64,000 nt of DNA from Sphingomonas sp. (GCF_036387535.1 NZ_DASVTO010000072.1:219-64218); one strand, 5' to 3'; shown: positions 34,293 to 56,404, numbered from the stretch's first letter. Program-made: numbers and translations. Notes: generated from the letters alone by a model not told the origin.

Positions 34293-35468
34293 TCAGGCGG
34301 CGTTGGCGGCGACGCCGGCGGCGAGATCGGCGAAATAGCTGTCGGTGATGCGCTGGATCAGCGTCATCGATTCCAGCGGCGGCGTCGGGGTGTAATCGTA
34401 ATCGATCGTCACCTTGCCGGCCGACAGGCTCGTCGTCGGGTTCTTGGCGACGTCGAACCACGCCTCCCCGCCCAGGATCAGCCCGGCGGTGCGCAGCTGG
34501 CGCAGCTCCGCATTGATGATCTCGACGATGTCGCGCACCAGGCTCGGCCGCAGCGGCTTGTCGATCGCCCAGGTCATGCCGGCGGCGATCGTATCCTGCA
34601 GCACCTGGGCGGTGCGGGTCGCGCTTTCGAACGCGAACAGCGGGTCGGCCGAGCAGGTGCGCTGACCCCAGATGCGGAAGCCGCCGCCAGTGCGGACGAT
34701 GGTCGAGACCTGCGCGGCGTTGAGCAGGTTCGCCTCGCACGCCGGATCCTGGATATCGAACTGGATATCCTTGGTGGTGCCCAGCACGCCCAGGACCGGG
34801 ACATTGCTGATCGTCTTGTTCCAGCCCTGCTCGGCATCGATCGCGGCGCGCAGGCCCATCGCGCGGGCGGTGGCGAAACTGGTGGCGTTGGCGCCGGTGG
34901 CGGCATCGAACGCGATGAAATCGGGGGTGAGCAGCATCAGCTCGCGCGACGCGAAGCCGCCGCGGTAGGTGATGGCGGCGGCGATGTCGGCGCCGATCGC
35001 GGCGGCATAGACCATCGCGCGCAGCTTCTTCGCGATCACAGTCAGCGCGGTGGTGACCGCCGCCGTGTCGAGGCCAGGCGCGCCGAGGATGCGCGGTTTG
35101 ATGCCGAGCCGGCCCTCGGCCGCGAGCAGCGCCTGCATGCCCGTCTTTAGCCCTTGTGGCGTCGTGGTGCCGATGACGCTGGCGTTCGTGGCGGCGGCGT
35201 CTGCACCGGGGGCGACGCGGATCACGATCAGGACCGGCCGCGCCTGATCGGCGATGGCGCGGAGCGCGCCGTGGAGCGTGCCGGCGACACCGGCCTTCCC
35301 GATCGCGGCGTCCAGGTCGGTGATGAGGACGGGCGTGTCGAGCGGGAAGACGGTCGCATCGGCATCGGGCGCGGTCGCGAGCAGGCCGATGACGGCGGTG
35401 GCGACGGTGACCAGGCTGCGCTGGGCCGCGCTGGTCTCGGTAACGGAAATGCCGTGCGAATAGGCCAT
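34293..35468 (-). CDS. FI: Tail sheath protein FI
   Basis: MAYSHGISV, FPLDTPVL, KPRILGAPG, GWNKTISN, GFRIWGQRTCS, DYDYTPTPPLE. Confidence 0.95.
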   Translation of the reverse strand: MAYSHGISVTETSAAQRSLVTVATAVIGLLATAPDADATVFPLDTPVLITDLDAAIGKAGVAGTLHGALRAIADQARPVLIVIRVAPGADAAATNASVIGTTTPQGLKTGMQALLAAEGRLGIKPRILGAPGLDTAAVTTALTVIAKKLRAMVYAAAIGADIAAAITYRGGFASRELMLLTPDFIAFDAATGANATSFATARAMGLRAAIDAEQGWNKTISNVPVLGVLGTTKDIQFDIQDPACEANLLNAAQVSTIVRTGGGFRIWGQRTCSADPLFAFESATRTAQVLQDTIAAGMTWAIDKPLRPSLVRDIVEIINAELRQLRTAGLILGGEAWFDVAKNPTTSLSAGKVTIDYDYTPTPPLESMTLIQRITDSYFADLAAGVAANAA

Positions 35469-35479
35469 GCGGAATCCTT

Positions 35480-35851
35480 TCAGGCGAGCGAAGCGGAGGT
35501 GTAGGAGACGTCGAGACGGACGCGGGTGCCGGCGCCGGCGGGGGCGAGGACATCGAGACGCTGCGCATCGAGCGAGAGGACAAAGGCCCCCGGGACAGCG
35601 CCCGCCGCCAAGGTCACCGCCAGCAGGCGGATGCGCGGTTCCCAGCGGAGCAGCGCCATGGCGGTCGCGGCATAGATGCGCAGGCGCAGCGCCGGGGTGA
35701 CGGGCCGGTCGATCAGGTCGGGAAGATCGGAGCCATAGTCGCGGAGCGCGACGCGCGATCCGATCGGCGTGAACAGGATGTCGGCGACCGACTGGCGGAG
35801 ATGGTCGGCGCCGGCGAGCGGCTTGCCGGTGCGCGCGTCCATGCCGGTCAT
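35480..35851 (-). CDS. W: gpW/gp25 baseplate wedge protein
   Basis: GMDARTGKPL, HLRQSVADILFTPIGSRV, RDYGS, RWEPRI. Confidence 0.92.
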   Translation of the reverse strand: MTGMDARTGKPLAGADHLRQSVADILFTPIGSRVALRDYGSDLPDLIDRPVTPALRLRIYAATAMALLRWEPRIRLLAVTLAAGAVPGAFVLSLDAQRLDVLAPAGAGTRVRLDVSYTSASLA

Positions 35852-36429
35852 GGCAGCGCCAGCGGTGCGAGCGTCTTGGCTGGGCCAGATTGGACACCGG
35901 GATGGACATGCTTGGCCAGGCTGATCCCGGCGCCCTTCACATCGCCATCGACATCGGCCTTGCCGCCGACGTCGAGATCGTCGCGGACGCTGAGCGTCCC
36001 CCAGATTTCGACCGGGCCGACCAGCGTGATGCCGTCCGGTGCCTCGATCTCGGCTCGGCCGCCGGCGGGCAGCTTGGCGACCAGCCGATGCGCCGCAGCG
36101 TCGTAGCTGATCTCGGCGCCGTCGACGAAGCGCAGCAGCTCGACATCCTCGGCCGCGGCCGGGGCAGGATTGGCATCCGAATAGAGGCCGAGCAGCACGA
36201 CGCCGGCGGCGGTGTCGCCCTCCGGGCAGAGCAGAAGGCATTGCTCGCCGATGGTCGGTGGCGACCAGGCCGCGGTGCCGCCGGCGCGGAACGCCAGCCA
36301 CGGCACCTCGTCAGTCAGCAGATTGCCGATCCGGACGATGCAGGTGGCGTTGGCGTGATCGATCGACGCGACGATGCCCGTACGGATGACATCGCCGATC
36401 AGGCGCTGGAGGTCGGCAGGGTCGCTCAT
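35848..36429 (-). CDS. V: gpV baseplate spike
   Basis: IRTGIVASID, WSPPTIGEQ, C-terminal KHVHPGVQSG. Confidence 0.93.
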   Translation of the reverse strand: MSDPADLQRLIGDVIRTGIVASIDHANATCIVRIGNLLTDEVPWLAFRAGGTAAWSPPTIGEQCLLLCPEGDTAAGVVLLGLYSDANPAPAAAEDVELLRFVDGAEISYDAAAHRLVAKLPAGGRAEIEAPDGITLVGPVEIWGTLSVRDDLDVGGKADVDGDVKGAGISLAKHVHPGVQSGPAKTLAPLALP

Positions 36430-38674: not shown

Positions 38675-39280
38675 CTATTCGGGCCAGCCGTCCTCGACAT
38701 CGACCGGGGTGCCGGCCGCGATCCTATCTTTCAAGTCCCAGCTATGCGCCAGGATCGCGCGGCCCCAGCCGGCCATGCCGAGCAGCACGTCCAGCCCCTC
38801 CTGATAGGTGACGGTGATCGTGGCATTCGACGCGGTCCGGAAGCTGGCGTCTACGACGTCACCGAAGCCGGCCGCGACTGCGGCGGAATAGCTGATCTGA
38901 CTGGTGAGCCAGTTGGTCTTGTCGTCGACGTCGCGCAGCTGGAGACGGTGGCCCGCGAACGCCGGTGACGCCGGCGCATAGCCGCCCAGGAACACGCGCT
39001 GGGCGCGCGCATCGACCGCGTCGCGGCGCGCGGCCATGGCAGCGGCGGCACGGGCGGCGAGGATGTCGGCCGCGATCGGCGTCACCCGCCAGTCGCCATC
39101 CACCCAGGCGATCGTCTCGATCTCCGGATCGATCGCAGGCGCGGCCGGCGCTTCGACCCAGCCGCAGGCGACGCGGCCGTCCGGATTGTTGGCGAGGTCC
39201 GACCAGAGATTTTGATCGGCATCCTGGTCGAAATAGGGGAGCGGTTGCGGTTCGCCGCCGGCGCGCATCCAGAGCGTCAT
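38675..39280 (-). CDS. Tail fibre assembly-like / DUF4376-like protein
   Basis: Last gene of the fibre module; FRTASNATITVT...HSWDLKDRI. Confidence 0.55.
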   Translation of the reverse strand: MTLWMRAGGEPQPLPYFDQDADQNLWSDLANNPDGRVACGWVEAPAAPAIDPEIETIAWVDGDWRVTPIAADILAARAAAAMAARRDAVDARAQRVFLGGYAPASPAFAGHRLQLRDVDDKTNWLTSQISYSAAVAAGFGDVVDASFRTASNATITVTYQEGLDVLLGMAGWGRAILAHSWDLKDRIAAGTPVDVEDGWPE

Positions 39281-39909
39281 CCGTAGAACTCCATCACGAT
39301 ATAGCCGTCGCCGCCCCCGCCACCCGGCGTGAATTCAGGACGCGGAACACCGCTGCCTCCGCCGCAGCCCAGCCGCCCGGCATAGCCGGAGCCGTCGCTC
39401 GGGTGGCCGCCATATTCACCGCCACCGCGAAGGCCGGAGCCGCTGGCACCGGTGAAATTGCCGAACGCGAAGCCCGCGCTTCCGATCATCGTCAGGTCGA
39501 CCCCATCTGCCCCCGGCTGCGCGTTGTCGCTGTTCGGTCCCGGCGAGACGAACGGAATCCCGATCTTCCCGGCCTTGGCGGTATAGCCAAGAGCCGAACT
39601 GTCTTCAGACGGGTAATATTGGTTCGCAGGGAAGCCGTTGCGCCCGCCGCGGCCGATCGTCACCGTGACGCTGCTGTCGCGCAGCCGAATGAACCGGCGT
39701 TCGGTCTGGGCCTCGCCCCCACCGTTGCTACCCTGATTGTTACTTTGCGCACCGCCAGCGCCGCCCCCGCCTTTCATCTCGAACCGCACCATCGTCGTGC
39801 CGCGCGGGACGGGCACGACGATGGTGCCGGGTTCGACACGACGGAACGTGCCGAGCCGGCGAAGCTGGCTGGTCGCGGTGGTTGCCGGGTTGGCAACGCG
39901 GCCCGCCAT
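39277..39909 (-). CDS. Gly-rich tail-associated / receptor-binding protein candidate
   Basis: VPVPRGTT..MKGGGGAGG, VTIGRGG, GGGGGDGYIVMEF. Confidence 0.65.
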   Translation of the reverse strand: MAGRVANPATTATSQLRRLGTFRRVEPGTIVVPVPRGTTMVRFEMKGGGGAGGAQSNNQGSNGGGEAQTERRFIRLRDSSVTVTIGRGGRNGFPANQYYPSEDSSALGYTAKAGKIGIPFVSPGPNSDNAQPGADGVDLTMIGSAGFAFGNFTGASGSGLRGGGEYGGHPSDGSGYAGRLGCGGGSGVPRPEFTPGGGGGDGYIVMEFYG

Positions 39910-45205: not shown

Positions 45206-45228
45206 CTTGTAGAGTGGGTTTCTACAAG
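45206..45228. promoter_or_regulatory. Late-promoter activator site upstream of J
   Basis: CTTGTAGAGTGGGTTTCTACAAG. Confidence 0.8.
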
Positions 45229-45941
45229 GGCGTCTTCCGAGAGCTCATCTTATCCGGGGCCGGTAGAGCCTTGGACCGTCGTGGGATAGACCCTTTCATT
45301 TCCAGTGCGCTGCCTCCCTCGATGAACGCCTTGCGGAGGAACAGCTCCATGGCGCCGATCAGCTTTCTAAGCTGATCGGCATCTGGCGACCAACCACGAT
45401 GGGCGGCCGCATTCCCTGCATCAGTTACAACCTCAAGCTGCTCGAGCTCGTTCTGACCTATACGACCTGTCTCCAGCAATTTGTCGAGCTTCTTCCTAAA
45501 GCTGAGCTCAGTATCAATCTCAAGAAGTTCAGTGGCACGATCGAGAGCGGTTCGCAGCCCTATGGCAGCGAGGATGGCAGACCCGCCCTCGGAGGCTAAA
45601 TACATTTGTTCAAGAATGACTCTCAGCTGATGGTCAGTCGCTTCCAGCTGGGCAACCCACTCCGGCCGCTCCCGCGCCCCTGGATGTGGAAACGTCTGCA
45701 CGGTAGGCGTGTGGCAAGCATAAGATCGTTCTTCGGCATGATCATACTCATCCTCCCATTCCTCGCTATTAGTGGCGCTCTGATGGAAGAAGACGGTTTC
45801 GCATCCTCGGCATTCAAGAAGGCTGTAGACTGTTTCCTCCCAGAAAAAGTCCTGCTCAAAACGCTGAGTGGTGGAGCCGTGAATTTTGCAGGAGCGCTTG
45901 CCGTTGCAATTTGGGCAATGGGCGCTTGTCTTCTTCGGCAT
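45222..45941 (-). CDS. DUF4145 (HEPN-like) moron with N-terminal zinc ribbon
   Basis: CPNC...CRGC; AAIGLRTALD, FRKKLDKL, DAGNAAAH; lower GC. Confidence 0.8.
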   Translation of the reverse strand: MPKKTSAHCPNCNGKRSCKIHGSTTQRFEQDFFWEETVYSLLECRGCETVFFHQSATNSEEWEDEYDHAEERSYACHTPTVQTFPHPGARERPEWVAQLEATDHQLRVILEQMYLASEGGSAILAAIGLRTALDRATELLEIDTELSFRKKLDKLLETGRIGQNELEQLEVVTDAGNAAAHRGWSPDADQLRKLIGAMELFLRKAFIEGGSALEMKGSIPRRSKALPAPDKMSSRKTPL

Positions 45942-45967: not shown

Positions 45968-46435
45968 TTAGGCTGGCATTGATGCCAGCACCGCGTCCAG
46001 CATGATTTTTCGCTCGGTATCGGTCAGACCAAGAATCTCGCGCTTCGCATAGCGAACCTTGGCCTGACCCTTCGCCGGTGCATCCTCCCGGCCCTCTTGG
46101 TGGATACGCGCCACGCGCGCCGCCTCACCGCTGAAACCGATCCAGGCTTCCCGGTCGGTGGCGCCCGCCTGCAGATGCTTCGCCAGGCGAAGCCTGCGGA
46201 ACATTGCGGCGCGTTTGATCCGGCCCTTCCGGCGCAGCCGCCCCTTTGGCTGATCTTTGGCCTTGCGCGGGGCAAACGGTGTCCCGTCCGGCTGGATCTG
46301 GGCGGCGATCCGGGTGCGCTGACTCTTTGCGATCTCGCGCGCCACGGTGCGCAGCAGCGTGCGGCGCTCGGCCGGCGCGACACCCCGCAAGAGCGCGCCC
46401 GCCAGATCCTCGAGCTGGTCGAGGCCGTCGCTCAT
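45968..46435 (-). CDS. S: gpS virion morphogenesis / tail completion protein
   Basis: SQRTRIAAQIQPDGTPFAPRK, MFRRLR, ARIHQEG, YAKREILG. Confidence 0.92.
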   Translation of the reverse strand: MSDGLDQLEDLAGALLRGVAPAERRTLLRTVAREIAKSQRTRIAAQIQPDGTPFAPRKAKDQPKGRLRRKGRIKRAAMFRRLRLAKHLQAGATDREAWIGFSGEAARVARIHQEGREDAPAKGQAKVRYAKREILGLTDTERKIMLDAVLASMPA

Positions 46436-46941
46436 GGCGCGGGCGGCTGGAAGGCGGGATCGCGGGTTTCGGCGATCAATTCATCGCGCAGGAACAGTTG
46501 CCACAGATTTTGGCCGCAGACGCCGGGAAAGTGATCCGGCTGGGCCGCGTCGTCGTCGAGATGGACGACGTCATAGCCGACGCCGGCGGCGCGCGGGGTG
46601 ACCCGGACGCGTTCGGTCAGATCGATGTCGATTCTGACGTCCGCGGACTCTTCGTCCTGGATCTCGGTTTCGAAAGTGAAGGGCTGCTGATCCTCACGCT
46701 TGAGCAGATCGGGTTGCTGCTCGGCGATCCATGCGACGATCGGGACCATGACCGCGTCCACATTGCCGGCGAACGCAAGCAGCGTGACGGTCAGCGTGTA
46801 GCGATATTCGAACGACAGCGATGCTCCGGCGCGCGCGCCGATCGCGCCGCGCTCGACCGACATTTGCAGCCGATCGGGGTTGTCCGCCAGACCGGGGACA
46901 GCCTTGAGCAGCAGGCGGCGGAGGCCGTTTGGCTTATTCAT
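46432..46941 (-). CDS. R: gpR tail completion protein
   Basis: MNKPNGLR, SFEYRYTL, QQPDLL, IDLTERVRV. Confidence 0.92.
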   Translation of the reverse strand: MNKPNGLRRLLLKAVPGLADNPDRLQMSVERGAIGARAGASLSFEYRYTLTVTLLAFAGNVDAVMVPIVAWIAEQQPDLLKREDQQPFTFETEIQDEESADVRIDIDLTERVRVTPRAAGVGYDVVHLDDDAAQPDHFPGVCGQNLWQLFLRDELIAETRDPAFQPPAP

Positions 46942-47260
46942 CGGAGATCCTCACGCCATAGCCCCAAGCCCGGATCGTCTCGATCGTCAGGCCCTCGGGC
47001 AGACGTCGGCGCAGGTTGCAGATCGCGACCTTCAACTGGTCGGGGTTGGTATCTTCGCCGGTGCCGACCAGCGTCAGGCCGAGCGTCGACACATCGCCGC
47101 GTTGCGCCAGCAGCCCCAGCATTGCGATCTGGCGCGGCGACAGCTTTATCCTGACCCCCCGCCAATAGGCGGCGGGGGGATCGGACTGGACGGTGAGCGG
47201 ACCGCGACGATGGGTGCCGCCGCGCACCGCGCCGCATTCGGAGCAGATCGCGCAGCTCAT
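46934..47260 (-). CDS. Stand-alone OmpR/PhoB-type winged-helix protein
   Basis: IKLSPRQIAMLGLL...LKVAICNLRRRLPEGLTIETIRAWGY; N-terminal CAICSEC; no receiver domain. Confidence 0.75.
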   Translation of the reverse strand: MSCAICSECGAVRGGTHRRGPLTVQSDPPAAYWRGVRIKLSPRQIAMLGLLAQRGDVSTLGLTLVGTGEDTNPDQLKVAICNLRRRLPEGLTIETIRAWGYGVRISDE

Positions 47261-47694
47261 CCGGCATAGGCGGCAGCGCGGGCGATCAACCGTTGCTTGC
47301 CTGCGGCCCAGCCGGCCGAAGCGATCTTGGCCTGCACATGCTGTTCGGTCGCGTGCGTGCAGTCGATCGTCGAGACCGGTTCGATCGTGACGTCCACCGC
47401 ATGATCGAGCGCGACCTTCGCGTTGCCGGCGAGTCGACAGGTCCATGTTCCATTCACGTTGTCGACCGGCGCGATCCCATCGTTCAGCGTAATGAACTCG
47501 CGCGTTCCACCGGCCCCGCCGTCGATGACGTAGCTGTGCCCCAGCTCCGGTTTGAAGTCGAGGACGACGCTGGTCGGGGTGCCCGCCACCGTCGCGACCT
47601 TGAGCTTACCCTTCGCGCCCGCAGGAACCGGCCAGCGATTCTCGTTGGGGCTGGCGTTCTTGAGGGTCAGGTCATGGTCGAAGACCCCCTCCAT
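47257..47694 (-). CDS. C-terminal part of the SGNH domain, in frame with the upstream gene
   Basis: Same frame, 12 nt after the TAA; contains GVFDHD and DCTH (DxxH). Confidence 0.6.
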   Translation of the reverse strand: MEGVFDHDLTLKNASPNENRWPVPAGAKGKLKVATVAGTPTSVVLDFKPELGHSYVIDGGAGGTREFITLNDGIAPVDNVNGTWTCRLAGNAKVALDHAVDVTIEPVSTIDCTHATEQHVQAKIASAGWAAGKQRLIARAAAYAG

Positions 47695-47706: not shown

Positions 47707-50235
47707 TTAGACCCCGGCAGATCCGCGATACCATGCGATGACGGCCTGCCGATCGGTGGTCCCATTCGGCTCCATGAGTACCTGATCGGTGACCGTCGCG
47801 TATGAGCCGGTGGGCACAGGCCCGGCTGGGACGCTTGACGGCCCCTGCACGTAGAAGTCGGGCGTCACGCCAAACACCTGAATGTTCGGGTCTTTTGCGC
47901 GGAGGCGACCGATGCCGGTTTTTGCGTTCGCAATGAAGTTGGTGACGCCGTTGCGCCAATGCTGCAGGACCACCTGCCGGAACAGCCAGCGGTCGGTCTG
48001 GCCGACCAGAACGCCGAATTCCTCCCACGTCGACAGTGCGTCACGACCGTTGGTATTCGGTCCGAAGAACGCCCCCGGTCCCGCCCCGTAGCGGACGTTT
48101 CCGACCACTGGAACCGCACCGCCATTGGACGGGTCGGTGAGCAGATGGCGCAGCGGACCTTCGGACGAGCGTCCGTTCACGACCCGCCCATAATGTTCGA
48201 TGCTGTCTCCGGCCACGACCACCGATGGGCCAGAGCTGTCGTCGACCTGCGACCACATGCCGCACACCGGATAGGCCGAGATCGAGCCGACAGCAGCGGG
48301 GGAACCGGTGCCGGTATGGAATGCGACATCGCTGATCTTGGACGCGATCAGGCGGTTGCGGTGATTGAGGCGGCGACCGCCGATCGGAACCTGATCCCAG
48401 ACCCGGAGATGGAGATCGGCCGCCGGCAGCGCGCCGTGGCGGAATGCGAAAATGGCACCGGCCTCGAACACGAACGGGTTACCGGCCGCAATCGGCTGAC
48501 CATTGGCGGGGTGCAGCACCGGATAGACCGTGCTGGTCGCCGGATCGAGGATATCGACGCGGTGATAGGTATTCTGGCTGGTGCCGGTGGTCGACATCGC
48601 GTCACCATTGGTGCTGCCCGAGAAATAGCGATTACCGCCCAGCAACCAGCCGCCCGTGCAGGCGCGGGGATGGTTCAGAAGCGTGGTGCTTTGCGAGAAT
48701 TCGCGCTTCGTCCCGTTGGTTGCCGTGGCGCTGTCGGGGACCACCCCATAGGCGTCCAGCTCCATCGGCCAGTTGAGGCCGGTCGATGCAATCGCCATCC
48801 GCGCGGCAGCGGCGGTCACCACCACGCGAGCGGTTGCACCGGTAGCGCCGGCGGCGGCGACGGCATAGTCGGTCGTGCCGGCCGTCGACACGGTCAGGCC
48901 GATAACGCCCTTCCACCCGTTGGTCGCATCGCCGGCAACGACGACGCGGCCATCGGCCGGCGTGATCGTCGGGGTCACCCCGGCCGGAACGCCTGCGATG
49001 TTGAAGACCAGCGTCCCGGCCGGCGCGCCGGCGGTGAAGGCCAGCGGGCCGGTGATGACCAGCGTCGGCGTGACGGCCGGGGTCGCGATCGTCACGACAT
49101 GCGTGAACAGCGTGGCGTTGCCCGCCGCGTCGATGGCGCGCAGATTGGCGGTGAAGGTCGGCTTGCCGGCATTGTAGGCCTGCGCCGGCAGGGTCAACGT
49201 GGTCCCGGCGAGGCCGAACAGATCCGTGTCGGCGCCGGTCCGCTTCTCGAACGTCACCGCCTCATTGGCCGCAAGGGTGACGCTGTACGCCGTGGAGGCC
49301 GCGACCGTGGCGGTTGCAGCCGACGTGACCAGCGGCGCGATCTCGTCGAGATCCGTGACGTTCACCGTCACCGCGAAGTTGGTCGCATTGCCGGCGGCAT
49401 CGGTGGCGGTCAGGTTGCAGACGAAGGCGGTCTTGCCGCCTTCATAATCCTGCGCGGGCAGCGACAGGGTCGCGCCAGCGAGGGTGAACGATGCACTGTC
49501 GGCTCCCGTGCGCTTCGAGAAGGTCACCGCTTCGTCGGCGGTCAGCGTGATCGCCCAGCCGGTGTTTTCGACGACGGTGGCGGTCAGCGCGGAGGTAATG
49601 ACAGGCGGGCGCGTATCCACGACGGGCGCCGGGGCGGCGACCGTCACGACATGGGTGAACAGGGTGGCGTTGCCGGCGCCGTCGAGCGCGCGCAGGTTGA
49701 CGGTGAAGGTGACCTTGCCAGCATTATAGGTCTGCGCGGGCAGCGTCAGCGTGGTGCCGGCCAGCCCGAACAGGTCGCCATCCGCGCCGGTGCGCTTTTC
49801 GAAGGACACCGCCTCATTGGCGGTCAGCGTCACCGCATAGCCGGTCGCGGCTGCGATCGTCGCGGTCGGTGCCGACGTGATCAGCGGCGCAATTTCATCG
49901 ACGTCGGTCACGGTGACGGTCACCGCAAAGTTGGTGACGTTGCCGGCCGTGTCCATAGCCACGAGGTTGCAGACGAACGCGGTCTGCCCGCCCTCATAAT
50001 CCTGCGCCGGCAGCGACAGCGTCGCGCCCGCCAGCGTAAAGGCCGCGCTGTCTGCAGCGGTGCGCTTGACGAAGCTGACATTCTCGTTCGCCAGCAGCGT
50101 CATGCTCCACGCGGTGTTTTCGCGCGTGGTGGCGGTGAGCGGCGAGGTGATGATCGGCGCGACGCCGTCGATCGGTGCGACGATGGTGGCGCTGCCACCG
50201 ATTTCGATCACTTGGATCCCGTGCATATAGGCCAT
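47707..50235 (-). CDS. Cadherin-like repeat / SGNH-hydrolase virion protein candidate, interrupted by an in-frame TAA
   Basis: Sheath-like N-terminus MAYMHGIQVIE; four ~90-aa repeats (DYE, D.AGN, VTDxDE); VVVAGDS motif near 48205. Confidence 0.75.
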   Translation of the reverse strand: MAYMHGIQVIEIGGSATIVAPIDGVAPIITSPLTATTRENTAWSMTLLANENVSFVKRTAADSAAFTLAGATLSLPAQDYEGGQTAFVCNLVAMDTAGNVTNFAVTVTVTDVDEIAPLITSAPTATIAAATGYAVTLTANEAVSFEKRTGADGDLFGLAGTTLTLPAQTYNAGKVTFTVNLRALDGAGNATLFTHVVTVAAPAPVVDTRPPVITSALTATVVENTGWAITLTADEAVTFSKRTGADSASFTLAGATLSLPAQDYEGGKTAFVCNLTATDAAGNATNFAVTVNVTDLDEIAPLVTSAATATVAASTAYSVTLAANEAVTFEKRTGADTDLFGLAGTTLTLPAQAYNAGKPTFTANLRAIDAAGNATLFTHVVTIATPAVTPTLVITGPLAFTAGAPAGTLVFNIAGVPAGVTPTITPADGRVVVAGDATNGWKGVIGLTVSTAGTTDYAVAAAGATGATARVVVTAAAARMAIASTGLNWPMELDAYGVVPDSATATNGTKREFSQSTTLLNHPRACTGGWLLGGNRYFSGSTNGDAMSTTGTSQNTYHRVDILDPATSTVYPVLHPANGQPIAAGNPFVFEAGAIFAFRHGALPAADLHLRVWDQVPIGGRRLNHRNRLIASKISDVAFHTGTGSPAAVGSISAYPVCGMWSQVDDSSGPSVVVAGDSIEHYGRVVNGRSSEGPLRHLLTDPSNGGAVPVVGNVRYGAGPGAFFGPNTNGRDALSTWEEFGVLVGQTDRWLFRQVVLQHWRNGVTNFIANAKTGIGRLRAKDPNIQVFGVTPDFYVQGPSSVPAGPVPTGSYATVTDQVLMEPNGTTDRQAVIAWYRGSAGV
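49080..50163 (-). repeat. Four cadherin-like domains arranged A-B-A-B
   Basis: Repeats 1 and 3 share FTLAGATLSLPAQDYEGG.TAFVCNL; repeats 2 and 4 share DLFGLAGTTLTLPAQ.YNAGK.TFT.NLRA. Confidence 0.85.
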
Positions 50236-50239
50236 GGGT

Positions 50240-50785
50240 TCAGTCTTTCGCGGGAGAGAGGGTGACGCCGGCGCGGCCGAGCAGCGTTTCCAGCCGCGAC
50301 CAGGCGCCGAGCGCATCGAGCGCGGGGTTGAGCCAGTCGGTCAGGACGCAGTAGCGCCGGTCGGACGGGGGGCGATGGTGGCCGGCATGATGGGCGGGCG
50401 ACTGGAGGATGCCGATCTGCTGCAGCACGCGCGCCAGGCGCGGCGCGTGGGCGGGCGCATGCGTCCAGCCATGCACGGTCGACGATAGCGCCGCGCCGAT
50501 CGCCGCCGCCAGCAGCACGACGGACGGACCGAGCAGCAGCAGCCAGAGCGCGGCGCCGATCGCCGCCGTGATCCAGGTCGACAGGTTGCGGGTCAGCAGC
50601 GACCCGGCCAGGAAAGCCACCGGATCACGGTGATGGCGGCGATTCGGCGCGATCACGGTGCGGCCGAGCCACGGCCAGTCCTCGCGGCCGAGCCGATCCT
50701 CCCACCAGTGGACGATGCCGCCGAGCAGATCGGCGATGAGCCAGCCGACGAGCAGCTGACCGATGATCGCGAACAGGTCCATCAT
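50240..50785 (-). CDS. CarF/TMEM189/FAD4-family lipid desaturase
   Basis: ADLLGGIVHWWED, RRHHRDP, HGWTH, LQQIGILQSPAHHAGHH, YCVLTDWLNPALD. Confidence 0.85.
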   Translation of the reverse strand: MMDLFAIIGQLLVGWLIADLLGGIVHWWEDRLGREDWPWLGRTVIAPNRRHHRDPVAFLAGSLLTRNLSTWITAAIGAALWLLLLGPSVVLLAAAIGAALSSTVHGWTHAPAHAPRLARVLQQIGILQSPAHHAGHHRPPSDRRYCVLTDWLNPALDALGAWSRLETLLGRAGVTLSPAKD

Positions 50786-51105
50786 CTGGCCTCCGGACAG
50801 GAGGCGGGATCGTTCCAGTCGATCAGGCGGCCGAGCTGGCGGGCGAGCGCGGCATAGGCGGTGGCCAGCCGGATCGCTGCGAAGCGGACGGCCGGCGGCA
50901 TGGTCGCCTCCGCATCGCGCGGGAAACCCTCGGGTGCGACCGGGCAGGCGAGCAGCTCGGCCGGCGGGCGGGTCGGCGTGGCGACCGCGACCGCGCTCGG
51001 GGCGGCGGGCCTAGCGGGCTGCATCGCGCAGCCCGGCAGTGCGATTGAGAGCATCGAACCAATCGCGACCGACGCGATCGTCCGGACCGACCTTGGCATT
51101 GGCAT
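50782..51105 (-). CDS. o-spanin (Rz1-like lipoprotein)
   Basis: Lipobox ALPGC, Pro-rich, PPAELLACP; overlaps the i-spanin 3' end. Confidence 0.75.
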   Translation of the reverse strand: MPMPRSVRTIASVAIGSMLSIALPGCAMQPARPAAPSAVAVATPTRPPAELLACPVAPEGFPRDAEATMPPAVRFAAIRLATAYAALARQLGRLIDWNDPASCPEAR

Positions 51106-51523
51106 TCTCCATGATGGTGGCGGCGGCGCGCGCATCGCGGGCGGCGCGGGCGGCCGTGGCGACGTCGCGGGTGCGCTTGGCGTCCTGTTCGGCGATGGCG
51201 TCGGCGAGCAGCCGCGCCGTGGATATGGCGGCGTCGTGGCGGAAGGCGACGAGCGCGCGGATCTCGGCCTCGCAACGGGTGCCGCGCGGATAGACCAGCA
51301 CCGTGCCGACCGGCGTCGCCGGATCGACGGCGCTGGCGGCGAAGGGGACGGCGGTGGCCGCGCAGGTGCGATCCGCCCAGGCGATCAGGCCGTCGCGTTC
51401 GGCTCGGACATGTGCCCCCCAGGCGTAGAGCGTGGCAGCGGCGGCGGCGACCGCTAGCAGCAGCAGCCAGCGGCCTTGGCCGGCGACCAGGCCCCACGCC
51501 CATTTGGCGGTGGCGACGATCAC
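51011..51523 (-). CDS. i-spanin (Rz-like)
   Basis: N-terminal TM followed by an Ala-rich coiled coil; follows the endolysin. Confidence 0.7.
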   Translation of the reverse strand: MIVATAKWAWGLVAGQGRWLLLLAVAAAAATLYAWGAHVRAERDGLIAWADRTCAATAVPFAASAVDPATPVGTVLVYPRGTRCEAEIRALVAFRHDAAISTARLLADAIAEQDAKRTRDVATAARAARDARAAATIMENANAKVGPDDRVGRDWFDALNRTAGLRDAAR

Positions 51524-51996
51524 AGCGCCAGTTCCTTGACCAGGTCGGCGACCTCGAAGCACGGGCAGTTCTTCAGCCATTCGAACTTGTCGATGCGTCC
51601 GTTGGCGTTGACGTCGGGCGACCAGTCGCGATGGCCGAGGATCTTCGCCTTGGGGAACTGAACGCGCAGCGCCTGCAACAGCAGCGCCATGGACTCGCGC
51701 TGGGGGGCGGTCCGCGTGTCAGCGGCCGTCTTCGCATCCGCCTCGACACCGCCCACATAGCAAATGCCGATATTGCCGCTGTTCTTGCCACCGACGTGCG
51801 CGCCGCGCTGGTCGTGGCGCAGCGTCTGCACGACGTTGCCGTCCAGCTCGATCACATAATGATAGCTGGCCTGGCCGAACTTGGCGGTATCCCATTTAGA
51901 GATGGTCGCCGCCTTCACGTTGCGGCCGCGCGGGGTCGCGGCGCAGTGGATCGTGATGGCGGTGATGGCGTTCGGGTTCATCCATGCGACGGACAT
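51520..51996 (-). CDS. Endolysin, N-acetylmuramoyl-L-alanine amidase (T7 lysozyme-like)
   Basis: ITIHCAAT, SYHYVIELDG, GAHVGGKN, IGICYVGG, GHRD, KNCPCF. Confidence 0.92.
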   Translation of the reverse strand: MSVAWMNPNAITAITIHCAATPRGRNVKAATISKWDTAKFGQASYHYVIELDGNVVQTLRHDQRGAHVGGKNSGNIGICYVGGVEADAKTAADTRTAPQRESMALLLQALRVQFPKAKILGHRDWSPDVNANGRIDKFEWLKNCPCFEVADLVKELAL

Positions 51997-52340
51997 CAGG
52001 CGGCGTCCTTCTTCCGCGCGATCCAGTCGCGCACCACGGTGGGAAGGGAGGCGATCATGTCGATCAGCGCGGCGGCGAACTTTGGCGCAGCCTTGTAGGC
52101 GATCATGGCCAGCACGAAGCCGACCGCCTGACTGACGAACTGATCGAAATGGAACCACGATGTCAGGCCGAGCGTGACATAATAGGAGACCAGGATGCCG
52201 ACGACATAGGCGATCAGCCGGTCGCGCCAGTCCATGCCGCGCTCATAGAGCTGCGCCACCAGCGAGCCGAGCGCGGCCGGGGCGAGCGCCGAGCAGGCCG
52301 CCTTGGCGGCATCGGCGAGATCGAGGAAGGGGGTGGCCAT
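51996..52340 (-). CDS. Holin candidate
   Basis: Small multi-TM protein with basic C-terminus, between X and the endolysin. Confidence 0.75.
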   Translation of the reverse strand: MATPFLDLADAAKAACSALAPAALGSLVAQLYERGMDWRDRLIAYVVGILVSYYVTLGLTSWFHFDQFVSQAVGFVLAMIAYKAAPKFAAALIDMIASLPTVVRDWIARKKDAA

Positions 52341-52344
52341 GCGA

Positions 52345-52560
52345 TCAGTCCCAGAGATTGACGACGGCGCGGGTCGCGGTGGTCGGAGCGGAGAGCGGCA
52401 CGCGGATGGCGGTGCCGATCGGCAGCACCGCGCCCAGCCCGGCCACCCCGGCGTTCGCATCCAACAGCGCGGGGAGATCGGCCGGGCCGAGGCCGCGTTC
52501 GCGCCAGGCGAGTTCGTCGAGCGTGTCGCCCTGGCGCGCGTGGAGGATATCGTCGGCCAT
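52345..52560 (-). CDS. X: gpX tail protein (LysM-like)
   Basis: ARQGDTLDEL, ANAGVAGLGAVLPIGT, VNLWD. Confidence 0.9.
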   Translation of the reverse strand: MADDILHARQGDTLDELAWRERGLGPADLPALLDANAGVAGLGAVLPIGTAIRVPLSAPTTATRAVVNLWD

Positions 52561-53063
52561 CAGATCAGATCGACCGTGGTGCGGTCGCGGCCGAGCAGAT
52601 CGCGGATGGCGTGGCGGCCGTCGCGGCGGAGATCGTCGGGCGTCTGATCGAGCGCGTCGGCCTTGCGGTCGCCGGCGGCGGTGGTGTCGATGTCGCGGTA
52701 GCGCTCGACCAGCTCGGCCTTGGCGAAACAGGCGACGGCGCGGATGTAGAGGATGGTGTTGCGGCTCTGGCCGTCGAGACGCGGCGCGGGGATGGCGGCG
52801 AGCGTGGCGTGGCCTTCGGCTTGGCGCGCGGCCTGCCATTCGACCAGGTCGTTGCTGACGGTCAGCACCGCGCCGACCGCCGCCGATCGCAGCCGCTCCG
52901 GGGTGACGGACTCGCGCACGCGGATCTCGCGGCGCAGCCGTGCCAGGTCGATGTCCGGCAACCAGCCGTCATTGACGATCGGCGCGTCGATCATCGGAAC
53001 GGCGGGTGGAATGACGGACGTCCCGCAATCGTCCGATCCGCCGCTGTAGACGAACCCGCTCAT
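52560..53063 (-). CDS. L: gpL head completion protein
   Basis: NDGWLPDIDL, VTPERLR, ERYRDIDTT, RTTVDLI. Confidence 0.92.
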   Translation of the reverse strand: MSGFVYSGGSDDCGTSVIPPAVPMIDAPIVNDGWLPDIDLARLRREIRVRESVTPERLRSAAVGAVLTVSNDLVEWQAARQAEGHATLAAIPAPRLDGQSRNTILYIRAVACFAKAELVERYRDIDTTAAGDRKADALDQTPDDLRRDGRHAIRDLLGRDRTTVDLI

Positions 53064-54363: not shown

Positions 54364-55416
54364 CTAGAGCTTCGGCGACAGCTGGATGTTCTCGATCAGG
54401 CAGGCCTTGCCGTATTCCTCGACCATGAAGGCGTCGTTGATGCTTTCATAGTTCTCGATCTGGTCGAGCGCGGGCTCTTCCTTCACGTGGCGGCGCGCCG
54501 AACCCATCTGCCAATAATAGGACAGGTTCTTGAGGCTCGTGATCATGATGGCGTTGGCGGGGAAAAACGGCACCTGCATGGTCGGCTTTCCGCCCAGCTG
54601 GCGGCTCGACATGATGATGTCGCGCGCCACCTGTTCGGTCGCCTTGTCGCCTGCCGCTGAGATGATCTTGAAATACTTGTCCTGGACCAGGTCGCTGCCG
54701 ACGATCACGACCAGGTCGGTCGCGGTCCGAAACTGGTCGGCGAGCAGGTTGTGGATGGCGTCGAACACCAGCGCATCGAGGTTCACATAGTCGGCGTTGC
54801 CGGTGTCCGACACGTAGACCTTGAGATTGTCCTTGGTGCCGTGCGTCATGACGCGCGCGCCGGCATAGGTCCGCATCTTGTAGAGCCAGCCCCAGTTTAC
54901 GTCCTGGAGCAGCGGATAGGCGGTGCGGTCGGTCTGCACCGCGGCGTTCACGCCGTTGAACCCGATCGTGATAACGTCGGCCGCCTTCTGGATGATGACG
55001 GCGTCACGGCAGAGCTGTTGGAATTCCGGACGATGCACCCAGGCGTCGAGCAGGCCGTAGCTCCACGCGTAATCATAGTCGGTCTTCTTGCAGAAATACT
55101 GGTCGATCGCGTCGCTGCCGGTCGGATCGGTCGGCGTCCGGCGGTTGCCCGCGGCGCGGTTCGTGCGGCTGGCGAGCGAACGGTTGATGCCGACCCCGAC
55201 ACGCGCGCCCTGCTGGGCCGGCACCGGGATCACGTTGATCCGCGACATGAAGTCGCTGGTCAACGCCAGCTTGGCCTGCAACTTCTGTTCGATGACGGCC
55301 GAGACCGCGAACTGGCGGATCTCGCCGGGGACGGCCGTGAAGCTGAAGTCCAGCCCGTTCAGCTGGGCGACCTGCCCAATATACGCGTTGAAGAGGACGC
55401 GGGTGTTGTTCTGCAT
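54364..55416 (-). CDS. N: gpN major capsid protein
   Basis: MQNNTRVLFNAY, IGFNG, PLLQDVNWGW, DYVNLDALV, VPFFP, NLSYYWQ. Confidence 0.95.
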   Translation of the reverse strand: MQNNTRVLFNAYIGQVAQLNGLDFSFTAVPGEIRQFAVSAVIEQKLQAKLALTSDFMSRINVIPVPAQQGARVGVGINRSLASRTNRAAGNRRTPTDPTGSDAIDQYFCKKTDYDYAWSYGLLDAWVHRPEFQQLCRDAVIIQKAADVITIGFNGVNAAVQTDRTAYPLLQDVNWGWLYKMRTYAGARVMTHGTKDNLKVYVSDTGNADYVNLDALVFDAIHNLLADQFRTATDLVVIVGSDLVQDKYFKIISAAGDKATEQVARDIIMSSRQLGGKPTMQVPFFPANAIMITSLKNLSYYWQMGSARRHVKEEPALDQIENYESINDAFMVEEYGKACLIENIQLSPKL

Positions 55417-55475: not shown

Positions 55476-56306
55476 TCAGCAGTCGGTCGCGTACTGCGCG
55501 TCGGCGGCCGCGCCGGTGGCCGGTTGGCGGCTGAAGCCAGGTAGCTCGGTCTTGTCGAGCTTGCCGGTCAGCACCGCGAAGTCGGCGGCAAGCTTCGTCA
55601 CCTGGGCGGTGATCGGGCCGGTCGCGGCGGCGACACCGGCGGACACGGCCTCGCTCATGGCGGTGTAGAGCGCGGCATTGTCGTTGGCGGGCGCGGGCGG
55701 GGTCACGACGGGTTCGGGCTTCGGTTCGGTCGGCTTGAACCCGAGCCGGGCGAAGGTGGCGGCGACCGCGGCGGATACGGTCGCCGCGAGACCGGCGGGC
55801 TCGATCTGCGCCGCCTCGAACTCGATCGCCACGGCTTCGTCCGCCAGGCCGAAGACGGTCCCGGGGCCGCTGCGCGAGAAGTTGAGTGGCTGGGTGGCGA
55901 TGCTGGCCGGCGTATCGGTGAACGCCAGGCCGACGACGCCGACCTTGCCGCAGCCGGCATAGCTGTCGGTCAGCTCGACCGACGGGAACGGCTTCTGGTC
56001 TTCCTTGGCGAGCTTCACCAGCTGCGCGTTGCCGTCGACCTGCATGTAGAGCGCGCGGCGCTTCTCGACCTTGCCGGCGATCGTGATGTCGTCGGTCTGC
56101 GCCTTGACCGCGGTAACGGTGCCATAACCGTTGAACGGGGGTTCGGGGCTGTAGCCGGCGATATGTTCGATGTTGATGCGCGGCGAATAGGTCTCCGCGT
56201 TGAAGGTCTCGACGATCTGGTCGATCATGTCCGCCGTGATCTTCCGGCCGTCGCTGATCGTATTGCCTTCGACAAAGGCGCGGAAGAATTTGCTCTTGGT
56301 GCCCAT
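55476..56306 (-). CDS. O: gpO capsid scaffolding/protease protein
   Basis: SKFFRAFVEGNTISDGRKI, RINIEH, GLAFTDTPAS, C-terminal TDC. Confidence 0.93.
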   Translation of the reverse strand: MGTKSKFFRAFVEGNTISDGRKITADMIDQIVETFNAETYSPRINIEHIAGYSPEPPFNGYGTVTAVKAQTDDITIAGKVEKRRALYMQVDGNAQLVKLAKEDQKPFPSVELTDSYAGCGKVGVVGLAFTDTPASIATQPLNFSRSGPGTVFGLADEAVAIEFEAAQIEPAGLAATVSAAVAATFARLGFKPTEPKPEPVVTPPAPANDNAALYTAMSEAVSAGVAAATGPITAQVTKLAADFAVLTGKLDKTELPGFSRQPATGAAADAQYATDC

Positions 56307-56404
56307 GGCGGCAGGATCCTCGGTCTCGGTTCGGCGGTTGATGCCCATCGGGCCTCTGACGCGCTGAAAAGGGACTGATCCCGGCCGCTTCTCAAGGCGG
56401 TGGT

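Follow-up and report, generated by a model that had tools for sequence, protein, structure and literature searches.

A putative membrane lipid desaturase of the PF10520 family overlaps an o-spanin-like gene in a P2-like prophage of Sphingomonas and has relatives in many phages

Introduction

What would a tailed phage gain from an enzyme of membrane lipid chemistry that is encoded directly behind its lysis genes? What is known of phage genes for the rewiring of host lipids comes mostly from cyanophages, with their fatty-acid desaturases, and from algal viruses, with their sphingolipid pathway. The question is raised by a prophage of a Sphingomonas sp. in which an open reading frame (ORF) with the histidine boxes of a lipid desaturase has a start codon that overlaps the stop codon of a putative o-spanin gene. 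A preliminary description of this DNA had assigned the encoded protein to the CarF/TMEM189 type and had proposed that late remodeling of host lipids could aid spanin-mediated membrane fusion or alter a lipid receptor. Here, we evaluate the identity of this protein (hereafter, the desaturase), the distribution of its relatives, and its association with lysis genes, starting from a stretch of 64,000 nucleotides (NZ_DASVTO010000072.1:219-64218; hereafter, the window).

Results and Discussion

The Desaturase Gene and the Late Operon

The window holds a complete-looking P2-like prophage of a soil-crust bacterium, with late genes on the minus strand and the terminase (gpP) and portal genes on the plus strand; gpM was also recognized. 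Among sequencing runs, two biocrust DNA metagenomes are listed as containing this DNA, one of them its likely source, and no RNA run is. The late operon is ordered as holin, amidase, spanins, desaturase, an 842-aa protein, two small ORFs, gpR, and gpS, and beyond gpS lie a DUF4145 gene, gpJ and gpI, a gene for a fibre-like protein, sheath, tube, tape measure, and gpD. The features surrounding the desaturase gene are as follows:

55476-56348 and 54364-55416: ORFs at the scaffold and capsid positions, respectively, assigned by position
52560-53063, minus strand: gpL (head completion), encoded farther upstream in the late operon (Pfam Phage_GPL, 2e-52)
51996-52460, minus strand: holin (phrog_2359 holin, 1.4e-14)
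51520-52158, minus strand: endolysin, an N-acetylmuramoyl-L-alanine amidase (Pfam Amidase_2, 3.6e-17; phrog_822 amidase, 4.6e-47)
51011-51580, minus strand: putative i-spanin with an N-terminal transmembrane helix and an Ala/Arg-rich periplasmic region; start codon uncertain
50782-51105, minus strand (longest ORF 50782-51135): putative o-spanin, a lipoprotein with a signal peptide and the lipobox LPGC (MPMPRSVRTIASVAIGSMLSIALPGC); its TGA overlaps the desaturase ATG
50790-50794, minus strand: Shine-Dalgarno-like GGAGG, by direct reading, separated from the downstream desaturase ATG by 4 nt and located within the o-spanin CDS
50240-50785, minus strand: PF10520 membrane di-iron lipid desaturase, 181 aa, from ORF translation and Pfam
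47707-50235, minus strand: 842-aa accessory protein with weak Big_3 matches, starting 4 nt after the desaturase stop
46432-46941, minus strand: tail completion protein gpR (Pfam P2_Phage_GpR, 6.1e-44)
45968-46435, minus strand: tail completion protein gpS (Pfam Phage_tail_S, 7.6e-28)

The counterparts of the scaffold and capsid ORFs in a locus with 89% identity (L004) carry Phage_GPO_N and Phage_cap_P2, and the true start of the endolysin is probably near 51996. In two relatives that lack extra cargo (L006 and L007), gpR follows directly after the desaturase.

The 181-aa translation contains all of the histidine boxes that had been claimed for it, namely HWWED (residues 26-30), RRHH (49-52), HGWTH (104-108), and HHAGHH (131-136), as well as YCVLTDWLNP at residues 145-154. 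The minus strand at the start of the gene reads GGAGG-CCAG-ATGATG, where the desaturase ATG occupies 50785-50783 and the TGA of the o-spanin ORF occupies 50784-50782. The desaturase ORF and its ATGA overlap with the upstream frame, as given in the preliminary description, are therefore confirmed.

The two genes that precede the desaturase have the architecture of a two-component spanin system downstream of an endolysin, in that a protein with a membrane helix is followed by a lipoprotein whose ORF overlaps the 3' end of the first gene out of frame. No spanin HMM from Pfam, PHROGs, or NCBIfam matched either protein; from architecture and position, we infer that they are the i-spanin and the o-spanin. 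Scanning the coding strand between 46000 and 53500 for sigma-70-type promoters and intrinsic terminators revealed no such site, and adjoining genes within this interval overlap or are separated by a few bases. Because of this tight packing and the lack of promoter- or terminator-like sites, the desaturase would most simply be part of a late transcript together with the lysis genes, gpR, and gpS. Coupling of the gene to the lysis cassette, as had been proposed, thus holds at the level of gene arrangement, since the desaturase is packed into the late operon and shares ATGA with the o-spanin gene.

Of the first 11 residues of the 842-aa protein (MAYMHGIQVIE), 8 are identical to those at the true N-terminus of the tail sheath (MAYSHGISVTE). 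The middle of the 842-aa protein comprises repeated Ig-like segments, and its C-terminal 360 aa contain a GDS motif and resemble clusters of GDSL/SGNH hydrolases, many of them viral (ESM Atlas feature score 0.93, a lead only). Relatives of this protein (959-979 aa) were identified downstream of the desaturase only in L004 and L085. The longest ORF of the tail sheath (34293-35909, minus strand, 538 aa) is over-extended; MAYSHGISVTE begins at residue 148, and therefore the real sheath comprises about 391 aa. Two small ORFs (46934-47446 and 47257-47694, both on the minus strand) that overlap by 190 nt lie between the 842-aa gene and gpR, the downstream one with a weak match to Trans_reg_C (winged helix); a single 108-aa gene was called at their position in L004. 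Between gpS and gpJ, in a stretch of low GC content (0.58 versus ~0.68), is a DUF4145 gene (45222-45941, minus strand; phrog_1305 'DNA binding protein'). It occupies the place of gpV and gpW in P2, neither of which was identified there, and looks like a separate cargo insertion.

Family Membership and Catalytic Residues

An HMM search against the Lipid_desat family, which the preliminary description had named among its checks, returned PF10520 with 127.4 bits (cut-off 26.4; E = 8e-37) over residues 15-169 of the desaturase and positions 1-164 of the 175 in the profile. PF10520 was the only Pfam family to pass its cut-off; a match to FA_hydroxylase was sub-threshold (28.1 bits versus a cut-off of 31). 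PHROGs holds no family for the desaturase.

Mutagenesis of mouse PEDS1 identified H96, D100, H121, H122, H187, H191, H215, H218, and H219 as essential (PMC8960569), and all CarF homologs conserve these eight histidines and require them (PMC9131029). In an alignment of the desaturase with 30 relatives (47-89% identity), H26, D30, H51, H52, H104, H108, H132, H135, and H136 are invariant. They follow the pattern H-x3-D, 25 residues to HH, H-x3-H, and 24 residues to H-x2-HH, and the spacings between conserved residues (25, 1; 4; 24, 3, 1) are identical in the desaturase and in mouse PEDS1. The essential aspartate of the family (D100 in mouse) corresponds to D30 of HWWED, four residues past the first histidine and invariant in the alignment, while the position of mouse F118, mutation of which leaves 6% residual activity, is by spacing an asparagine in the desaturase.

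Eleven pairs drawn from across the desaturase family yielded dN/dS values of 0.06-0.35, which indicates that the family is under purifying selection and probably comprises working enzymes. A search for longer or fused forms of the desaturase found none, which is weak evidence, and no redox partner was recognized beside the gene.

Structural prediction is consistent with these findings. The AlphaFold2 (AF2) model built on the alignment (pLDDT 92.4) has three long membrane helices, at residues 4-31, 63-85, and 89-109, and short helices that bear the histidine boxes; as predicted, this is the fold of the polytopic membrane di-iron desaturase/hydroxylase superfamily. The nearest ESM Atlas cluster (TM 0.88) is 100% PF10520 and 50% viral. 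Among solved structures, the best match is Scs7p (PDB 4zr1), with Z 7.8 over 151 aligned residues, an rmsd of 4.0, and 15% identity; the next unrelated entry scored 4.8 and SCD1 scored 3.7. Foldseek against the PDB returned nothing at E <= 0.001, with Scs7p ranked first at E = 0.83, and querying PDB sequences with the family profile yielded no PF10520 structure. Collectively, the invariant residues, the PEDS1 spacing, the confident model, the structural match, the Atlas cluster, and the low dN/dS point to a protein that is probably a working catalyst rather than a relic or a mere membrane anchor.

Is the Desaturase of the PEDS1/CarF, FAD4, or Hydroxylase Kind?

All plasmalogen-forming members of the family carry a ninth histidine (H113 in CarF, H131 in mouse; PMC9131029, PMC8960569). 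This additional essential residue is found in the plasmalogen formers of animals, myxobacteria, and Leptospira, whereas FAD4-type homologs of plants and alphaproteobacterial homologs (Bradyrhizobium), in which it is absent, fail to complement carF (PMC9131029). The desaturase has no histidine between H52 and H104, and none is conserved there in the 30 relatives. The CarF equivalog model (NF045946) was the only NCBIfam match to the desaturase (E = 1e-22), at 80.8 bits versus a cut-off of 500, and its alignment covers positions 56-233 of 269. Given that the model of the desaturase has three predicted membrane helices rather than the four of the PEDS1/CarF topology, in which both ends are cytoplasmic, the first 55 positions that are left uncovered probably hold the first membrane helix of CarF.

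Judged by its sequence, then, the desaturase is a member of PF10520 but not of the plasmalogen-forming PEDS1/CarF type, since it lacks the ninth histidine and scores far under the equivalog cut-off. The CarF/TMEM189 label that it had been given is valid as a statement of family and fails as a statement of function. That it is nonetheless a true plasmanylethanolamine desaturase, forming plasmalogens in the infected cell, is very improbable: CarF is its sole NCBIfam match and it shares the eight-histidine motif and the aspartate with PEDS1, but the low score, the missing histidine, the unmatched N-terminal part of the CarF model, and the failure of homologs that likewise lack the ninth histidine to complement carF all argue against such an activity.

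The eight-histidine motif without a ninth histidine is the pattern of FAD4, and this pattern was found in the desaturase. However, uncharacterized alphaproteobacterial homologs also lack the ninth histidine, and its absence is therefore no proof of FAD4 activity; 'FAD4-like', if applied to the desaturase, would refer solely to this common absence. The earlier statement that the substrate of the alphaproteobacterial homologs is unclear agrees with the finding that one such homolog fails to complement carF (PMC9131029).

A different reading starts from the structural ranking, in which Scs7p, a sphingolipid alpha-hydroxylase, is the best solved match (Z 7.8 versus 3.7 for SCD1). Together with the weak FA_hydroxylase match, this would be consistent with an enzyme that is a hydroxylase, or that acts on a non-glycerolipid (a sphingolipid, ornithine lipid, carotenoid, or hopanoid), rather than a desaturase of the PEDS1/FAD4 kind. 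The outer membranes of Sphingomonadales are rich in sphingolipids, and the hosts of the relatives are mostly Sphingomonadales (see below), which fits such a substrate. However, because PF10520 is without a solved structure, the match to Scs7p shows a shared superfamily only; the PF10520 score (127 bits) is far above that of FA_hydroxylase (28 bits, below cut-off); and further relatives come from Planctomycetota, Verrucomicrobiota, Burkholderiales, and other taxa. We therefore regard a hydroxylase or a non-glycerolipid enzyme as improbable.

Distribution and Genomic Context of Relatives

Relatives of the desaturase numbered 166 cluster representatives in a word-indexed search and 1761 in an exhaustive search; a look-up of longer matches from the latter gave unnamed metagenomic or Phycisphaerales proteins. 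Matches were also detected in 114 viral contigs of IMG/VR and at 56 loci in species-representative genomes. One carrier was identified in the phage GenBank set, Erythrobacter phage vB_EliS-L02, the copy of which is 48.5% identical, lies between PhoH and portal, and is annotated as 'hypothetical protein'. The hosts are mostly Sphingomonadales, and all 20 matches in Sphingomonadales genomes fell within recognized prophage classes. In the family of the host, the gene is sparse, with the phage type in two of 121 sampled genomes. That the desaturase is phage-encoded, as had been claimed, is borne out both by its location inside the P2-like prophage and by its relatives, which are overwhelmingly phage-borne.

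The relatives were reduced to a non-redundant set of 89 sequences at 80% identity. Neighboring genes were called by GC content per codon position, as suits high-GC DNA, with a caller that misses spanins and small genes, and context classes were assigned from precomputed Pfam tables and from clustered neighbors whose representatives were scanned with Pfam or PHROGs. The following contexts were distinguished (non-redundant loci):

P2-like prophages, between o-spanin and gpR: 11 loci
Mu-like prophages, between tail_S-type protein and Gp37 or sheath: 8 loci
Mu-like prophages, between Gp27 and large terminase: 6 loci
Mu-like prophages, between the Mor/lysis region and Gp27: 6 loci
Siphovirus head-connector modules: 4 loci
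CbK-like large phages, between PhoH and portal: 4 loci
Myoviruses, between gpV-like spike and sheath: 2 loci

Several further desaturase loci are low-GC large viral contigs. The phage branch is thus large, and its carriers are numerous unrelated phages that for the most part infect Sphingomonadales.

Full-text searches of the literature revealed no paper in which PF10520 occurs together with phage, or in which FAD4 and desaturase occur together with bacteriophage, and searches for CarF, TMEM189, or plasmalogen with bacteriophage returned no title concerning a phage desaturase. Neither the description of vB_EliS-L02 (PMC9127768), which does not mention a desaturase, nor the paper on its proteome, which does not mention the protein, refers to it. 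This large phage-borne branch of the CarF/PEDS1/FAD4 family is apparently undescribed.

Forms that look cellular were also encountered. These include proteins of 217-233 aa in Verrucomicrobiota, encoded beside a divergent LysR gene, and copies in Cytophagales and Burkholderiales. A divergent cellular PF10520 paralog (open frames of ~250-275 aa, 38-53 bits) occurs in 10 of the 121 genomes of the host family and in the genome of the prophage host itself. The latter copy (L002, contig C133, ~39037-39396; ~241 aa, 50.5 bits) has the boxes HMYMD, KNHH, HGSLH, and HAHHH and adjoins fliD/fliS-like genes and a gene for a Sir2-type deacetylase.

Two different phage-type copies (L028 and L030) are present on two contigs of the cultured strain Citromicrobium bathyomarinum JL1455, and the L030 desaturase starts 2 nt past the frame of a Phage_lysozyme-type endolysin. 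In three Mu-like prophages of Sphingomonadales (L022, L025, and L029), large unannotated genes (519-845 aa) precede Gp27; they lie between genes for a GH108-type endolysin and spanin-like proteins and those for the small membrane proteins in front of Gp27. This interval between endolysin and Gp27 in Mu-like prophages seems to be a cargo hot spot.

Association with Lysis Genes

In a phylogenetic tree, desaturases of the P2-like class form nearly one clade despite divergence to ~50% identity, which suggests a single acquisition followed by vertical descent in this class. Eight of 11 representatives of the class have an upstream ORF with a signal peptide and lipobox, and in these the end of that ORF and the beginning of the desaturase share 4 nt (ATGA or GTGA). 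As read from these sequences, the overlap is a translational coupling that has long been kept in the P2-like lineage, and as such is real and old.

An endolysin was detected on the same strand as the desaturase in at least 23 of the 89 loci, always upstream and never downstream, where the counts are lower bounds given that the profiles were built from four seed families only. In at least 15 of 89 it lies within 1.3 kb upstream, comprising ten P2-like loci with enough flanking sequence and five others (L011, L023, L009, L030, and L114); in eight further loci, seven of them Mu-like, it is 2-6 kb away. On the tree, the state of being directly behind an endolysin requires at least five changes. 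For at least 18 relatives, the surroundings are a head, connector, or tail module or the PhoH and portal genes. The link to lysis is thus recurrent but not obligatory, since copies in Mu-like phages, siphoviruses, and CbK-like phages are often in head or tail modules.

Would the enzyme then act in lysis? As an accessory, it could alter the lipids of the inner membrane before lysis and thereby aid the spanin-driven fusion of inner and outer membrane or the timing of the holin. Several observations would be in keeping with this: the ATGA overlap with the o-spanin and its retention in eight of 11 P2-class relatives at ~50% identity, the endolysin within 1.3 kb upstream in 15 of 89 loci including five outside the P2-like class, the five or more changes that this state requires on the tree, and the upstream position of the endolysin in all 23 loci where one was detected. 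The junction after the lysis genes is, however, a usual site for phage cargo, and position alone is therefore weak evidence for a role in lysis. Moreover, ten of the 15 cases near an endolysin represent one inherited event, at least 18 relatives belong to morphogenesis modules or neighbor PhoH and portal, at a long distance from detected lysis genes, and the endolysin counts are themselves lower bounds from four seed families. On this evidence, we consider a role as lysis accessory rather unlikely. What stands of the proposed function in spanin-mediated fusion is the coupling of the genes; the function itself had been proposed from position only, and 15 of 89 relatives follow lysis genes, ten of them in one clade, with at least 18 elsewhere. 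In our reading, the coupling would point to co-expression with late genes and not to a function in lysis.

In its strongest form, lipid desaturation would be an unrecognized accessory step of lysis in sphingomonads and their relatives, in which a double bond introduced close to the head group during the final minutes of infection primes the inner membrane for spanin fusion or times lysis. Although we think this unlikely, it would, if true, explain both the retention of the desaturase at the o-spanin stop through deep divergence and its repeated landing behind endolysins.

The temperate lifestyle of most carriers (P2-like and Mu-like phages) and the accessory nature of the gene (two of 121 genomes in the host family) bring a further explanation into view, in which expression from the prophage alters a membrane-lipid receptor or the envelope, and thereby protects the lysogen or stops progeny from binding to debris. 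Such lysogenic conversion or exclusion is improbable, as the desaturase has no promoter-like site of its own and overlaps the o-spanin stop, and the active site of the family faces the cytoplasm, far from the cell surface (PMC9131029). Relatives in large CbK-like phages, among them a phage that was lytic when isolated (PMC9127768), likewise argue against a role that is limited to lysogeny.

Proposed Function and Comparison with Known Systems

The reading that we favor, and consider reasonably probable, is that the prophage encodes a catalytically intact, O2-dependent di-iron enzyme of PF10520 that is made late and modifies a lipid of the host membrane, and that it is not of the plasmalogen-forming type. 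In this scheme, the enzyme would be cut down to a catalytic core of three membrane helices and cytoplasmic helices bearing the histidine boxes. It would share the transcript of the late operon of P2 type (gpL, gpX, holin, endolysin, spanins, desaturase, gpR, and gpS), and would be translationally coupled to the o-spanin, produced late in infection as the gene packing suggests, and inserted into the inner membrane of the host, where it would draw electrons from host donors and use O2. PEDS1 acts at C1' of the sn-1 chain and FAD4 acts at C3 of the sn-2 chain. By analogy, the desaturase may introduce a double bond near the head group of a host glycerolipid or another membrane lipid. A hydroxyl group is a less likely product, and one that is conceivable because the closest solved fold is that of a hydroxylase and because of the sub-threshold FA_hydroxylase match. 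A single acquisition in the P2-like lineage would have brought the gene to the far end of the lysis cassette, where it has since remained. Candidate gains for the phage are changes in membrane fluidity or curvature that favor lysis or assembly, or effects on the lysogen.

These findings place a family associated with animal plasmalogens and with the trans-16:1 lipid of chloroplasts, in stripped-down form, in hundreds of genomes of tailed phages. Also new are the conserved coupling to a spanin gene in P2-like prophages of Sphingomonadales and the family-wide test, which revealed a link to lysis that is recurrent but not general. Should the enzyme prove active, it would be a minimal and easily expressed member of a family without a solved structure, a handle on the activity of the bacterial non-PEDS1 branch, and a means of asking whether phages adjust membrane chemistry in favor of lysis or assembly.

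Among characterized enzymes, FAD4 (the 16:1 delta-3-trans desaturase of phosphatidylglycerol in plant and algal chloroplasts) resembles the desaturase in its PF10520 membership, in its eight histidines and aspartate, and in its lack of the ninth histidine. Unlike FAD4, the desaturase is phage-borne, comprises ~180 aa with three predicted membrane helices, and has no transit peptide. Uncharacterized alphaproteobacterial homologs of PF10520 share with it the eight-histidine motif and the aspartate, likewise without the ninth histidine. PEDS1/TMEM189 of animals and CarF of Myxococcus xanthus, the plasmanylethanolamine delta-1' desaturases, have the family, the spacing of the eight histidines, and the aspartate (D100 = D30) in common with the desaturase, which differs from them in lacking the ninth histidine, in the asparagine at the position of F118, and in its missing N-terminal part. 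The fatty-acid 2-hydroxylases Scs7p and FA2H have the same membrane di-iron fold with histidine boxes, whereas Scs7p is a hydroxylase, comes from a different Pfam family, and has an additional cytochrome b5 domain.

The lipid desaturases of cyanophages are members of the classical fatty-acid desaturase family. As the known precedent for phage lipid desaturases, they are, like the desaturase described here, phage-borne, membrane-bound proteins with histidine boxes that are presumed to alter host lipids (Roitman et al., PMC5776448). In contrast to the cyanophage genes, the desaturase is carried by phages and prophages of Sphingomonadales and other heterotrophs, and its gene is situated at the boundaries of lysis or structural modules.
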